Of a DNA stretch of 64,000 bases, positions 43,020-55,780 are shown one piece after another. Each line of letters starts with the position of its first letter. The first letter of the stretch is position 1. The notes under the pieces were generated by a model. It made no database searches. It was not told the DNA's origin and saw only the letters and a list, made by a program, of their open reading frames with translations. The position numbers were made by a program, and so were the translations under genes. This stretch comes from Octopus vulgaris (lineage: Eukaryota), in assembly GCA_951406725.2 (NCBI GenBank), contig OX597816.1:26164001-26228000 (forward strand). The letters are read 5' to 3'.

Positions 43020-43067
43020 GTCTTACAGCTGTTTCTGGGATATTTTATATATCCCCTCATCAGAGAC
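43020..43067 (-). ncRNA. Type I hammerhead ribozyme
   Basis: GTCT-CTGATGA-G-GGGATAT(ATAAA)ATATCCC-A-GAAA-CAGCTG-TA-AGAC; palindromic stem III ACAGCTGT. Confidence 0.88.
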
Positions 43068-43429
43068 GGTGTGAGAAAATGGTTAAGCAATAGTTATTCT
43101 AGATAAGATATGAAATAGAGAGTGAAGTGGTGGAATGAAAATAGACGTTAGATATGAAGGGATATTGTATCTGCATATATGTATATATATATATATATAT
43201 ATATATATATATATATATATATATATATATATATATATATATATAGTTAATCCAAACATGAAAACACAACAACGCGAGGACGTGGAACAGGTATAGTATA
43301 ATTGGACGCTCAGGAAAGGAGGAGGGTTTAACATTCGGGCGGAGCTCTTCGTCAGAAACATAGGAAAAGGAAAGATCCAAAGAAAGGAAAACGGAGGGAA
43401 AAAAATCGCCAACGGTACACACGCGGATG

Positions 43430-44870
43430 ATAATTTTATGATTTCGTTAAACCGAAGAACAAAAATGAAAATAAGAATAGGACTGCAGATGGAAGTGCTC
43501 AGGTAACACTGAGACGAGAGGGAAAATAAACTGAAAGGTAGAATGAATAAACGCTCTAATTGGTCAAAACAACTTTATAACGTTCCCATATTATCATAAT
43601 TCGAGCATAAATATATATTAGAACAACAGGCCATCTAATGGTAAAACCCAATAGTATAAAATATACACATATATACGAATAAAAGGTGATAAAACTTAAA
43701 AGAGTAATACGAGTGAAGTCGAATGAAGTAAAATATATGTATTAGATTAATACATATTAAAGGCGATTAAAAATTTAACACAATGAAACTAAAATAATAT
43801 AAAAATATAAATATAAATATAAAAATAAAGGGCAAAGTGGTAACCAGAAAGGAGTTCATTCAAATTCATCTCTACGATCGTTTCAAAAGACGATGACTCA
43901 TTTCGTCAATATAAAATCCATTAAGGAAATACAAGGCAATGACCTTTCCTTTAGGACAAAATTTACAAAAGCTGCAGCAAAGTCTTTCTCTTAATTTAAT
44001 CAGTATTTTTTTTAAATGGACAATGGACTAATCCTCACTTGAATCCACTGAAATTCTGATTTTAATTTTTCTGATTACATTAAGTCATTGAACACTATAC
44101 TTTACTTCCCTACACCATTTTAGAATCGTCTGACAACCAGAAATGTGAAACTTTTGTAAATTATGCAGATATCTAATATATCTACATAATTTATTCCTTG
44201 AGGGAGAGCACTGGAATTTAACATTCTAACCAATAGTCCAGAGGTCCTCTTCAAATTGTTTCAAACCTGGGTTAGGAGGAGGATTATTTTTAGATTTGAA
44301 TAATTTACAAAATTCAGATTTATGGTCATAAAAGGATGTTTTGATATCCTTCTTATCGAAGAAGAAGGCTTGCCATCTAATACGGTTAATGGAAGAATTA
44401 GTCTTATTTATGAGCTGTTGCAGGATAAATTTTCTTGGAAGAACAGGTATATCCTTGAAAGAGGCGTTAATATTAATGGTCTTTATTCCGGTTTCAAGTT
44501 TAATAAAATAAAGCTTGGTGTATATGTATGAGTAAACACTTTATAGGAAAGATCCAGGGGAATAATTACAAGGTAGCTACATTTTGCTTAAGTATTCTAG
44601 GTAAGAATGATCACACTTGTGTAATGCGTGTGTGTACGTGTGCATGCATAATATACATCATGTTACCTAGGGCTTCTTATACCTGTTAAAATGTCTATTT
44701 GATGAGTTGTTGTTTATATATTTTCTGATGTGACTGATGCATAGCTACCCATAATTCTTCTAGTCGAACGTCTTTTGAATGCATCCATTGAAACATATGT
44801 AGAAGATATGAAGATATAAATGTTTTAATAACATCCTGAGCGTTTGTCTGCGTTTTCAGTTTTTCCTATG
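43430..44870 (-). mobile_element. Penelope-like element remnant (ORF N-terminal fragment plus terminal-repeat segments)
   Basis: Minus-strand peptide ASFKDIPVLP..LINKT..INRIRWQAFFF..FKSKNNPPP..LKQFEEDLW..NVKF resembles the N-terminus of Naiad-type PLE ORFs; hammerhead 3' half GAAACGATCGTA at 43873-43884(-). Confidence 0.65.
44085..44520 (-). pseudogene. PLE ORF N-terminal fragment with an in-frame TAG
   Basis: Hand translation; stop at 44226-44228; no RT core follows. Confidence 0.65.
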
Positions 44871-45123
44871 CATATACACACACACACACACACACACACA
44901 TATATATATATATATATATATATATATATATATATATATGTATATATATATATATATATATATATATATATATATATATATATATATATATATATATATA
45001 TATATATATATATATACAAAAAGCAATAAAGATTCAAGTTAATTTAAATGAATTTACTTGAATATGGTACCTAACTTAGATGCACCAAAAAAACCACTAG
45101 GATGTCTAGAGAACTCACATGTA

Positions 45124-45214
45124 TTTTAGCTGATGAGTACGGAACACGTTTATATGCTGTAATTTTTGCAACTTTTAATAAAGCCTGTCCTTGTATGAAA
45201 CGATTGTACTAAAA
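45124..45214 (+). ncRNA. Type I hammerhead ribozyme with extended stem II
   Basis: TTTTAG-CTGATGA-GTAC...GTAT-GAAA-CGATTG-TA-CTAAAA; perfect 6-bp stem I; GUA triplet ends at 45208. Confidence 0.85.
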
Positions 45215-52937: not shown

Positions 52938-53226
52938 GGAGGCACATAGCCTAGTGGATAGAGCAGCGGGGATCGCGGGTTCGAATCTCAGACTGGGTGG
53001 TGTGTGTGTTTATGAGCGAAACACCTAAGTTCTACGCGGCTCCAGCAGAAGGTAATGGCGAACTTCTGCTGACTCTTTCGCCACAACTTTCCTTCAATCA
53101 TACCTCCTGCATCTTGCAGCTCACCTGCGACGAATCGGCGTCCCGTCCAGTTGGGGAACCTATACGCCAAGGAAACCGGGAAACCGGACCTATGAGCCAG
53201 GCGTGACTTGAGAAGGGACAAACAGC
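52938..53226 (+). mobile_element. SINE family C with target-site duplication
   Basis: TSD ATATAACTGAGG at 52924-52935 and 53227-53238. Confidence 0.9.
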
Positions 53227-54919
53227 ATATAACTGAGGCTGTAGAACCGGTATAAATAATTATTATTTCAATACAAAAAAACCAGCGAGCTGGCAGAATC
53301 GTTGGGATACTGGGTATAAATGCTTAGTAACATTTCGTCCCTTATTACATTCTGCGTTCAAATTCCGCTCAGTCCTGAGTTTGTCTTTCATCATTTCGGG
53401 GTCGATAAAATAAATATAAGTTGAACACTGGGGTCGATGTAATCGACTTACACCCTCCACTGAAATTGCTGGCCTTGTGCCAAGATTTCAAATCAATATT
53501 TTAACACAGAATAGAATTTGTATTTAAAATCCGTTTTTTGTCATTCTTTTAATGTTTTTCTTGACGAAACTGTAGAAATTGTTTGGGATGTTCGAAATAA
53601 TACGTACTGGAATTTTATTCGCTTGTCTTGTTAATTGTTTCTTCAATTAACAGAGTTTAAAAAAAGAGGCATCAAAGAGACAACTATGGGGAGGTTTGAA
53701 ATAGTCTGTTTCAGAAATCAATCCTAATCCATATTATTCAAATATAATCAATCAGTGGTACAGTTAAATTCCGCAGAACATTCCGAATATTCTCCACGTG
53801 AATTTCCCATCCTAAACATATGAAAACATGGAAAATACTCCAGAGAACACTCCCCATGTGAATTTCCTGAGCTAGACATATGCATTCATTCACATATGCA
53901 TATGGAGCTCTTGAGCACATACACAAACACACACACACAAAGAAGCACACACCCTTACACACACAACACACATGCACACATACACAGACACACGCATACA
54001 TAAAAGTGAAGAACAAACACTTGTACGCTACAGGAAAATGTAGAACGTGTGAACGAGAGACACTTGTGTGCTAAAGTGAAATGGATATCAGTCAGACAAA
54101 TACAAGTTATCCACGAGCACAAACATACATAAATACACACTTCAACTGACTCAGACGTCCACAAATCGCCAACACCTGCCTCAATTGAAACAAAAGAGTC
54201 TTGCCACTTGCTTATTGGCCAGCTTCAGTTATCCAAATGAAAAAGCACACACACACATAATATATATATATATTTGAGTAGTTGAATGAATTATCTTATT
54301 ATGGATAATTCGGTTAACCGATACCTGGGTAGCAAATTTACGTCAGAAAAACTCGGTTGAAGCTACATGCCAAGGGCAGAGATCACGTGCTTTCGTGTGG
54401 AAATTTGTGTGTTTTTTTAAATACAAATAAATGACGAACAAGTCGTATAACTCCATTCTTTCATTTATTTCATATATATATATATATATATATATATATA
54501 TATATATATGTATATATATATATATGAAATAAATGAAAGAATGGAGTTATAAGACTTGTATATATATATATATATATATATATATATATACACACACACA
54601 TATATATATATATATATATATATATATATATATATAAATGCAACAACATTGAGGAACGGCCTCAATAGGCCATTCTAAATATATAGTCTCTGACTATTTT
54701 CTCTTTCTCACTAGACCGCTGGTGGCGAAAAAATTTCTATTGAATTTTTTGCTACCCTATATTGATTAGTTCATATATATATATATATATATATATATAT
54801 ATATATATATATATATATATATATATATATATATGTATGTATGTATATATATATATATATATATAAATATATTACGTTTTTCTCTGTTTCATTATTCTCT
54901 CACCCCGACTACTTTATTC

Positions 54920-54955
54920 CTTTCTGAAGAAGAGCATAGGCTCGAAACGTCAAGG
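54920..54955 (+). ncRNA. Minimal type I hammerhead ribozyme
   Basis: CTTT-CTGAAGA-A-GAGC(ATAG)GCTC-GAAA-CGTC-AAGG; stem III reduced to the palindrome ACGT. Confidence 0.8.
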
Positions 54956-55375
54956 TCTCTTCCATTTTCTTTGAGTGACAGTTGTTTTTTTAACGATTTT
55001 GGATCATACATGCATACCTACATGTGCACTCACATACACACACATACACACACATCATTAACACACATCATTAATAGCGATTATAAGCTGTGTTAATACA
55101 AAAAGGTAATGCTTGACTTCACTTAAAAGTGGGTTTTGTGTTATAACACATACATTGCATGTACATATATATATATATATGTATATATATATATATATAT
55201 ATATAACTTAAGTACCATATTCATCTGAATCTAACTTTTATATATATATATATATATATATATATATATATATATATATATATATATATATAAGTTAGAT
55301 TCAGATGAATATGGTACTTCAGTTGAGGCACCAGAATTAAGTATGGTATTATCCATACAATTTCAAAATCAAAGT

Positions 55376-55780
55376 AAGCAACAAGGATATCCAGAAGTAA
55401 TGCAGTACGATCGTTTCATGCAACTCCGCTTAAGTGAACAATGCAATCATTTCATTACATCAATTTAAAATGTAGAGCAATCTTCAGCTGTACAAAGACA
55501 TAGAATTTATTTAAATTAGGACACATTAGTATAATTTTACCCAAAATCTCCAAGAGGATGAGAAGATAGACAAAGAACATGTTTTACCAACGACATCATA
55601 GTTGTAACAACAATTCTCTTGGAGATTTTGGGTAAAATTATACTAATGTGTCCTTCTAATTTAATTAAATTCTATGTCTTTGTGCAGCTGAAGATTGCTC
55701 TACATCTTAAATTGATGTAACGAAATGATTGCATTGTTCAATTAAATCCTACTGCATTACCTCTGGATATACGTGTTGCT
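55376..55780. repeat. About 400-bp fold-back containing a hammerhead
   Basis: Arms about 55376-55555 and 55615-55780. Confidence 0.9.
55401..55492 (-). ncRNA. Type I hammerhead ribozyme with long stem II insert
   Basis: TACAG-CTGAAGA-TTGCTC...GGAGTTGCAT-GAAA-CGATCG-TA-CTGCA; palindromic stem III ACGATCGT. Confidence 0.75.

Follow-up and report, generated by a model that had tools for sequence, protein, structure and literature searches.

Minimal and variant type I hammerheads sit in the pseudo-LTRs of metazoan Penelope-like elements (PLEs) (Cervera and De la Peña 2014, PMC4209133). The palindromes in Fig. S3 of that paper vary among families (ACGU, AGCU, AUAU, AGCGCU, AUAGCUAU and ACAGUACUGU, among others) and are shared by many of them, so that both varied and shared palindromes are already published. 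Small PLE hammerheads are described as cleaving as dimers (Lünse, Weinberg and Breaker, RNA Biol 14:1499, as reported in PMC6765202 and PMC6466107). Double-hammerheads, with stems III fused via a palindrome, are described for ASBVd and the newt satellite RNA (Forster 1988, as cited by others), and the accessible part of Perreault 2011 (PMC3088659) tabulates palindromic stems and loops III in several animals (Fig. S8C). It has also been suggested that PLE hammerheads may merely ride along (PMC8557442).

In this paper we analyse a window of 64,000 nucleotides of Octopus vulgaris DNA, together with related copies elsewhere in the genome. With PMC4209133 our motifs share the type I topology, CUGANGA and U3-A8 cores, an extra base after A9 and a short stem I, as well as a palindromic helix III, its consensus 'GAAAN Palind NU H' and the dimer model. 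Mostly solo clipped copies and inverted pairs 100-700 bp apart are found in both. In contrast to that paper, octopus 8-nt AC-NNNN-GU stems with helix II regions of 40-70 nt are very abundant (37,896 against 1,379 in the control), many octopus families are without the G10.1-C11.1 pair, and G·U changes can be followed step by step inside one genome. A very short palindromic stem III is also found in the Lünse hammerheads, for which, as far as the citing papers report, a tandem layout was proposed to permit dimers. In ASBVd, the newt satellite RNA and PMC3088659, too, a palindrome joins two stems III, although hosts and elements are different and the available portions of these sources contain no family-level analysis. 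Metazoan non-LTR retrozymes (PMC7229834; bioRxiv 10.64898/2026.07.22.740005) resemble our copies, in the parts available, in being non-coding offshoots of PLEs that carry type I hammerheads, and some of them need dimers. The copies of the window, however, are not set head to tail in short arrays but lie dispersed or inverted; elsewhere in the genome, the distance between some ACGUACGU copies of one strand is about 550 bp. Among the listed literature matches, covering titles and abstract openings outside subscription journals, we found no relevant claim of orthogonality for hammerhead palindromes.

Hammerheads of the window and their link to Penelope-like elements

The original prediction named nine stem III strings, and all nine follow a GAA at or beside the expected places (Table 1). 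A recognisable core is present in seven of these copies, as CUGANGA in five and as the U3-A8 form UUGAAAA in two, and the same seven have the type I order of stems I, II and III. The exceptions are 4605+, which has lost the CUGANGA part of its core, and 43873-, which reads CTAAAGG where most of its relatives (a family with at least 48 genome matches) have CTGA(T/A)GA; the relatives of both copies do have core and stem order. The repeat families of the named copies range from tens to thousands of copies genome-wide.

Table 1. Hammerhead-related features of the window
Feature	Position	Strand	Remarks
Stem III ACAGCTGT	43032-43025	-	preceded by GAA
Stem III ACCTAGGT	46892-46885	-	preceded by GAA
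Stem III ACGATCGT	55414-55407 and 43881-43874	-	preceded by GAA
Stem III ACGATTGT	45200-45207	+	preceded by GAA
Stem III ACATATGT	4605-4612	+	preceded by GAA
Stem III ACGT	54947-54950	+	preceded by GAA
Stem III AATT	15585-15588 and 28629-28632	+	preceded by GAA
Type I hammerhead	43020..43067	-	intact CUGAUGA core (43063), stem II 7 bp, stem I 4 bp, stem III ACAGCUGU
Type I hammerhead	46877..46949	-	intact core (46942), stem I 7 bp, stem III ACCUAGGU
Type I hammerhead	55400..55493	-	core CUGAAGA (55487), helix II region 63 nt, stem III ACGAUCGU
Inverted twin of 55401- element, GAAA and stem III deleted	55650..55800	+	alignment to L184, L023
Decayed copy, separate family	43868..43959	-	core CTAAAGG, stem I UCUC/GAGA, stem III ACGAUCGU
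Type I hammerhead	45124..45214	+	intact core (45130), helix II region 60 nt, stem I 6 bp, stem III ACGAUUGU
5'-clipped copy, ACAUAUGU family	4556..4685	+	94% to L059; homology begins at 4556
Minimal hammerhead	54920..54955	+	core CUGAAGA (54924), stem III ACGU
Related ACGU repeat	46516..46551	+	altered core CUGUUGA (A6 to U)
Minimal hammerhead within inverted pair	15556..15592	+	U3-A8 core UUGAAAA (15559), stem III AAUU, stem I 3 bp
Two U3-A8 AAUU hammerheads, inverted arrangement	28600..28743	.	cores 28603+ and 28740-
Counter-example hammerhead, absent from the original prediction	9884..9923	+	intact core (9887), non-palindromic stem III AGAACU
Possible decayed hammerhead	44718..44808	+	ACATATGT at 44793-44800; no relative among the fetched loci
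Remnant, N-terminus of Hydra-clade-like Penelope ORF	44154..44471	-	tblastn E 2e-10 to L054, L197 ORFs

Cleavage of the 43020- hammerhead is predicted 3' of A43024. Relatives of 46877- carry ACCTAGGT (locus L181) and ACCATGGT (L041), and the stem III of 45124+, ACGAUUGU, pairs with itself using G·U while its relatives have ACAATTGT and ACGATCGT. For the 46516+ ACGU repeat the altered core is the common state, with CTGTNGA in 11 of 14 sampled copies. The ACGU, AAUU and AGAACU motifs have both the G10.1-C11.1 pair and an unpaired base after A9. In 43020- there are unpaired bases on either side, and families with a long helix differ among themselves in this feature. No relatives of 44780+ and 19312- were found among the fetched loci. 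Rfam gave no hammerhead match at the gathering score, and none among the best 150 of 391 E-value matches. Its scans of the window returned only tRNA at the gathering score, plus miRNA matches driven by microsatellites, which also dominate the window repeat search.

Some families can be tied to PLE coding sequence. The AGAACU family of 9887+ adjoins an ORF with RT and GIY-YIG in L015 and L207, same-strand hammerhead copies 4.8 and 4.6 kb apart flank the ORFs of L197 and L015, and both ACAGCTGT (L009) and ACATGTGT (L230, L231) come after endonuclease-end remnants. For most families, among them 43873-, 46877-, 45124+, 55401- and the ACGU and AAUU repeats, no ORF tie was found in the fetched loci. 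In L283 the 43873- family seemed to be connected with another RT, but as the family's other loci do not have this RT, we rejected the connection. The L054 ORF has RWK, DKT, a CxCX5C linker and a C-terminal endonuclease, as in the Hydra clade PLEs (Craig et al. 2021, PMC8557442), a placement that is based on motifs and not on a tree and that concerns elements to which only some hammerhead families are linked. The L197 ORF has RIKWK and DKT. Further likenesses to that clade are the (TA)n-rich insertion sites and the presence of hammerheads, but downstream of the L054 ORF itself we found no recognisable hammerhead, and a Pfam search of this ORF gave no match.

Palindromy and the one-strand constraint

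That self-complementarity is kept while the sequence varies, as originally proposed, is borne out by palindromy far above chance. The ACAGCTGT pattern has 2,181 genome matches against 1 in the control, and with the inner four bases left free there are 17,095 against 1,233. Among the first 100 listed matches of the latter kind, tallied by eye, 69 are perfect palindromes where about 6-7 are expected, 14 are G·U-compatible and 17 mismatched. In 1.064 Mb of DNA picked without regard to hammerheads a perfect palindrome occurs in 19 of 42 descriptor matches; the corresponding figures are 1 of 10 for reversed DNA and 0 of 15 over three shuffles. AC-NNNN-GT has 16 possible forms, of which at least 14 occur, and there are also palindromes of 4, 6, 10, 11 and 12 nt.

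The short palindromic helix III of PLE pLTR hammerheads is found in our families with the exception of AGAACU. This family has 3,955 matches and near-identical copies, mostly with core A9 changed to C; among 100 copies that were listed, 98 read AGAACT, which is not a palindrome. Since the family and the CUGUNGA repeats have spread without a perfect palindrome or core, cleavage is not required by every family. The 9887+ hammerhead had been overlooked in the original prediction.

In a strand-mirror test we compared the genome-wide count of a G·U-compatible variant with that of its reverse-complement A·C variant. ACGATTGT occurs 983 times against 50 for its mirror ACAATCGT, and ACATGTGT 2,725 times against 371 for ACACATGT. 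Such genome-wide excesses stem from a few expanded subfamilies and are not independent events. A third family, which shows plain decay and served as the baseline, has no excess (ACAGTTGT 174, ACAACTGT 165), and the GU/AC ratio of the flank mutation spectrum is 1.07 in singletons and 1.00 in shared changes. In a tree built without stem III, ACACGTGT (3 rows, support 100/100) is nested within the ACATGTGT clade and ACATATGT lies outside it; in the same analysis the six A·C ACAATCGT rows require six separate changes. The small trees of families 6 and 9 were uninformative. One lineage steps through ACAUAUGU–ACAUGUGU–ACACGUGU at a central pair that is formable only in a dimer; the mirror state relating to this series is ACACAUGU. 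The central pair of the palindrome is under a one-strand pairing constraint. As this pair is impossible in a monomer hairpin, the constraint supports a dimer-type design.

The calculated folding energies also support this design, which the original prediction had put forward and which is already in print. For nearly all stems of 8 nt the monomer hairpin is predicted at +2.4 to +2.9 kcal/mol, and the active dimer of the four 8-nt window copies at 10.6-15.9 kcal/mol below two monomers. For 46877- the predicted minimum-energy dimer has both stems I swapped and an 8-bp palindrome duplex. The predicted minimum-energy dimer of three of the four 8-nt copies does not exchange its stems I. Of the four active dimers, two would lie above two monomer minimum-energy folds. 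The model gives a dimer in trans no advantage when the stem has 4 nt (+1.7 and +6.4). The proposed silence of solo copies is plausible for stems of this length.

The palindromes of 11-12 nt could be monomer folds, with 4-bp hairpins calculated near 0 kcal/mol. These hairpins favour the possibility that the motifs are monomeric ribozymes, in which the 8-nt stem has 2 bp capped by a tetraloop and is held stable by tertiary contacts or protein, and in which palindromy is ancestral. Invertebrate retrozyme hammerheads with such a helix III cleave well as monomers according to the available part of PMC7229834, and the long helix II of many families could dock on stem I. But monomers give no cause for the covariation of the central bases or for the excess of G·U over A·C, and since many different palindromes recur, inheritance alone is insufficient as an explanation. 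We consider purely monomeric action unlikely.

Reuse of palindromes between families

The claim that each family uses a different palindrome did not survive. The 55401-, 43873- and 45124+ copies all have ACGAU(C/U)GU; their stems I and II differ, and BLAST among them within the window found no mutual match. Eight palindromes are each common to two multi-copy clusters. A palindrome is shared by 25 of 903 cluster pairs, in 18 of which a stem I swap is impossible.

The original prediction also had different palindromes keep the families orthogonal. A selected code of this kind would have diverged against cross-cleavage or poisoning among co-expressed families. The variety of AC-NNNN-GT forms and of other lengths would fit such a code, as would the mean stem III penalty of 11.1 kcal/mol calculated for cluster pairs with differing palindromes, whose stem I penalty is 13.4, and the small number of cluster pairs that are near-neutral in both stems (6 of 903). 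However, sharing is not below chance: its probability is 0.089 against 0.0625 expected (20 clusters, a small sample with no phylogenetic correction), and in 94% of uniform simulations the sharing is no greater than this. Furthermore, ACGU is common to two of the largest minimal families (15,277 matches against 221 in the control), four ACAGCUGU clusters are cross-compatible in both stems, a wobble intermediate is able to pair with the state on either side of it, and the AGAACU family is non-palindromic. Palindromes shared within one genome are also in print (S. mansoni 2 and 4, 1 and 3; PMC4209133). A selected code of this kind is very unlikely. Stem I is the more family-specific element; that it too is exchanged between the copies of a type I dimer had been overlooked in the original prediction.

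A DNA-level site for an endonuclease or other protein, or a product of symmetric CpG decay, is extremely improbable: two CpG transitions do turn ACGATCGT into ACAATTGT and inverted copies are frequent among these insertions, but a variant and its reverse complement are one double-stranded site and decay itself is symmetric, so the 20-fold and 7-fold differences in abundance already largely refute it.

Probable dimer pairing and its meaning for the elements

We think it probable that the window holds scattered, partly decayed type I hammerheads of Penelope-like terminal repeats and their short offshoots, in which the palindrome is likely kept for dimer cutting while its sequence likely drifts within the limits of this pairing instead of being selected as a code. 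In a tandem PLTR-ORF-PLTR transcript, two hammerhead copies would swap stem I strands and their stems III would form a palindromic duplex of 4-12 bp. The dimer would have two active sites and release unit-length RNA. New palindromes may arise through G·U wobble steps that still self-pair. Any family specificity of the dimer would be a by-product of divergence, with stem I carrying at least as much of it as stem III. Our finding mostly confirms the published dimer design, and a private palindrome for each family fails.

A more speculative idea, to which we give little credence, is that stem I and stem III together are a two-part self-recognition key selected among co-active Penelope families. 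If it were true, only RNAs of the same kind would cut one another, a non-autonomous repeat would take over its helper's key or give it up, and G·U walks would be a route to new keys without loss of function.

From the genome itself, the mirror test and the stepwise change of the central pair give evidence of selection on dimer pairing during the spread of several families, and the octopus genome supplies natural wild-type, wobble and compensated stem III variants for an assay.

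Hammerheads in the window and their elements

The Octopus vulgaris genome comprises 2.8 Gb in 227 contigs, and the window is AT-rich and microsatellite-dense. An Rfam search of the window gave no hammerhead match, so the motifs were sought with purpose-made descriptors and genome-wide pattern counts, which for repeats may be lower bounds. The descriptor search recovered all nine stem III strings named in the original prediction. Among the copies that carry them, 4605+ is missing the first core half, and the core of 43873- is decayed, unlike the mostly intact cores of its relatives.

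The motifs are real and of an already known kind. PMC4209133 describes the dimer model, palindromic helix III, the U3-A8 core and inverted pairs, and palindromic stems III are tabulated in PMC3088659 (Fig. S8).

Features of the window and their positions
Feature	Position	Strand	Observation
Hammerhead	43020	-	core CUGANGA
Hammerhead	46877	-	core CUGANGA
Hammerhead	55401	-	core CUGANGA
Hammerhead	45124	+	core CUGANGA
Hammerhead	54920	+	core CUGANGA
Hammerhead	15583	+	U3-A8 core
Hammerhead	28627	+	U3-A8 core
Penelope ORF remnant	44154-44471	-	N-terminal
AGAACU family	9884-9923	+	young family
ACGU short repeat	46516-46551	+	very common; related repeats near 17749, 28380, 33089
Inverted repeat	7222-7399		long, near-perfect; scored as a MIR2670-like hairpin, under the gathering cut-off; a MITE or an inverted element end is possible
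tRNA-like sequence	31157-31228	+	scores 50.4 bits with Rfam; may be the head of a tRNA-derived SINE

Several loci elsewhere in the genome link the motifs to Penelope-like elements (PLEs). At L197, same-strand hammerheads with ACGATTGT and ACGATCGT lie 4.84 kb apart and bracket a broken Penelope-like ORF, and at L009, L230 and L231 the ACAGCTGT and ACATGTGT motifs come after endonuclease-end remnants. The AGAACT family flanks a distinct ORF (YVDD, DKS, CX4CXXC; L015, L207) with weak RVT_1 matches, which its motifs would make Neptune-like; in L015 the family adjoins a near-intact two-frame RT and endonuclease element. For most hammerhead families no ORF association could be established. L054:3152-6688 holds an apparently intact Hydra-like ORF (726 aa) together with a partial copy in inverted orientation, and no recognisable hammerhead was found within about 600 bases downstream of the ORF. 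In the 43873- family (L265-L283) homology often reaches from about 35 bases 5' of the core to more than 300 bases 3' of it, which departs from the usual 3'-end position of the hammerhead.

Stem III palindromy and the strand-mirror comparison

Palindromic stems III are far more frequent than in the controls. The ACAGCTGT pattern has 2,181 genomic matches against 1 in the reversed control. With the inner four stem III bases left free, there are 17,095 matches with a short helix II (control 1,233) and 37,896 with a helix II of 40-70 nt (control 1,379). A tally by eye of the first 100 listed short-helix matches gave 69 perfect palindromes, where about 6-7 are expected by chance, 14 G·U-compatible stems and 17 mismatched ones. 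We also analysed 1.064 Mb not picked for hammerheads (the window and 100 stretches of 10 kb), in which 19 of 42 descriptor matches have perfect stems, 5 have G·U stems, 2 are of odd length and 16 are mismatched; the reversed DNA gave 10 matches, 1 of them perfect, and three shuffles gave 15, none perfect.

Among these 8-nt stems, hammerheads with a long helix II (in the window 45124+, 55401- and 43873-) are about twice as common as short-helix ones; published descriptors emphasise a helix II of 4-8 bp. Odd-length stems III also occur (L083:2174+, L117:1359+, L065:4317-, L321:2144+; for example ACTCGGAGT, ACATGATGT, ACCAAATTGGT) and would have a central mismatch in a dimer. A small clade in L089 and L040 carries ACATTTGT, whose dimer would have central U·U pairs.

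Any stem III variant shares one double-stranded DNA site with its reverse complement; as RNA, only one of the two can self-pair via G·U, the mirror carrying A·C instead. Genome-wide, ACGATTGT has 983 matches against 50 for its mirror ACAATCGT, and at a central pair that a monomer hairpin is unable to close, ACATGTGT has 2,725 against 371 for ACACATGT, both comparisons having been picked after the lists had been seen. Eleven copies of one ACACATGT motif, spaced 9-13 kb apart at G000:C2:14631957-14738661 and likely a tandem segmental duplication, inflate that mirror count. A third comparison, in the first family of the original prediction, showed no excess (ACAGTTGT 174, ACAACTGT 165), which shows symmetric decay after insertion and no expansion of a wobble subfamily there. 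Outside the ribozyme, G·U-making and A·C-making changes are equal (ratios 1.07 and 1.00; ten families, one without usable columns). The mirror excess therefore reflects a few subfamilies that spread carrying a wobble and not thousands of independent events.

Stem III appears to change stepwise. In trees computed with stem III excluded, and including loci chosen for their stem III, ACACGTGT (three rows, two insertion sites, support 100/100) is nested inside an ACATGTGT clade and ACATATGT falls outside it. The six ACAATCGT rows are dispersed; of two inverted twins at L158, one is intact. ACCTAGGT and ACCATGGT are likewise present among related copies.

Palindrome sharing among families

The proposal that each family uses a different palindrome fails within the window, where 55401-, 43873- and 45124+ are mutually unalignable and all read ACGAT(C/T)GT. 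Clustering 238 de-duplicated matches at 80% identity gave 83 clusters, and we retained the 43 (22 single-copy) whose commonest stem III is self-pairing and which have at least one unselected member. A palindrome is common to 25 of 903 cluster pairs, and in the 21 multi-copy clusters eight palindromes each occur in two clusters. We see no sign that palindromes are spread out among families: two of the 20 clusters that carry perfect 8-nt AC..GT stems, a small sample uncorrected for kinship, share a palindrome with probability 0.089, a uniform draw giving 0.0625. At least three motifs of high copy number have ACGU in common, with 15,277 matches against 221 in the control. The 9887+ family has 3,955 matches, with AGAACT in 98 of 100 listed copies and A9 mostly changed to C. 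The core of the ACGU short repeat reads CUGUNGA in 11 of 14 sampled copies, so this repeat spread with A6 changed.

In favour of the code, at least 14 of the 16 possible 8-nt palindromes occur and incompatibility is predicted for the majority of family pairs, but divergence alone accounts for this. PMC4209133 (Fig. S3) shows palindromes both varied and shared, including sharing within S. mansoni. In the literature searched, including the parts covered of this and further papers (PMC7229834, PMC6765202, PMC6466107, PMC7761336, PMC8557442, bioRxiv 10.64898/2026.07.22.740005) we found neither an orthogonal code nor a strand-mirror test stated. A palindrome private to each family has no support.

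Predicted dimer pairing and its likely setting

The topology of a type I dimer requires that the 5' strand of stem I in one copy pairs with the 3' strand of stem I in its partner. In eighteen of the 25 palindrome-sharing pairs the two swapped stems I cannot both reach 3 bp; of the seven compatible pairs, six are ACAGCUGU clusters with different stem II. For different-palindrome pairs the mean penalty is 13.4 kcal/mol in stem I and 11.1 kcal/mol in stem III.

Of the seven window copies folded with a nearest-neighbour model, none has a monomer minimum-energy fold that contains the active stem III. For the four 8-nt window copies the active dimer is predicted to lie 10.6-15.9 kcal/mol below two active monomers; the 46877- minimum has both stems I swapped and the palindrome duplex, and the remaining three copies have alternative dimer folds of lower energy than the active dimer. 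The model does not favour a trans dimer for the ACGU and AAUU copies, and clusters with 11-12-nt palindromes could, on modelling, fold alone.

According to PMC4209133, monomers are inactive and multimers weakly active; for the window hammerheads we infer cleavage. Most copies in the window stand alone or in inverted arrangement, which leaves few partners in cis. The natural setting would likely be a tandem PLTR-ORF-PLTR transcript, in which the hammerheads may have protein help, as PMC4209133 proposes. The genome of this octopus offers new and good support for selection on dimer pairing.
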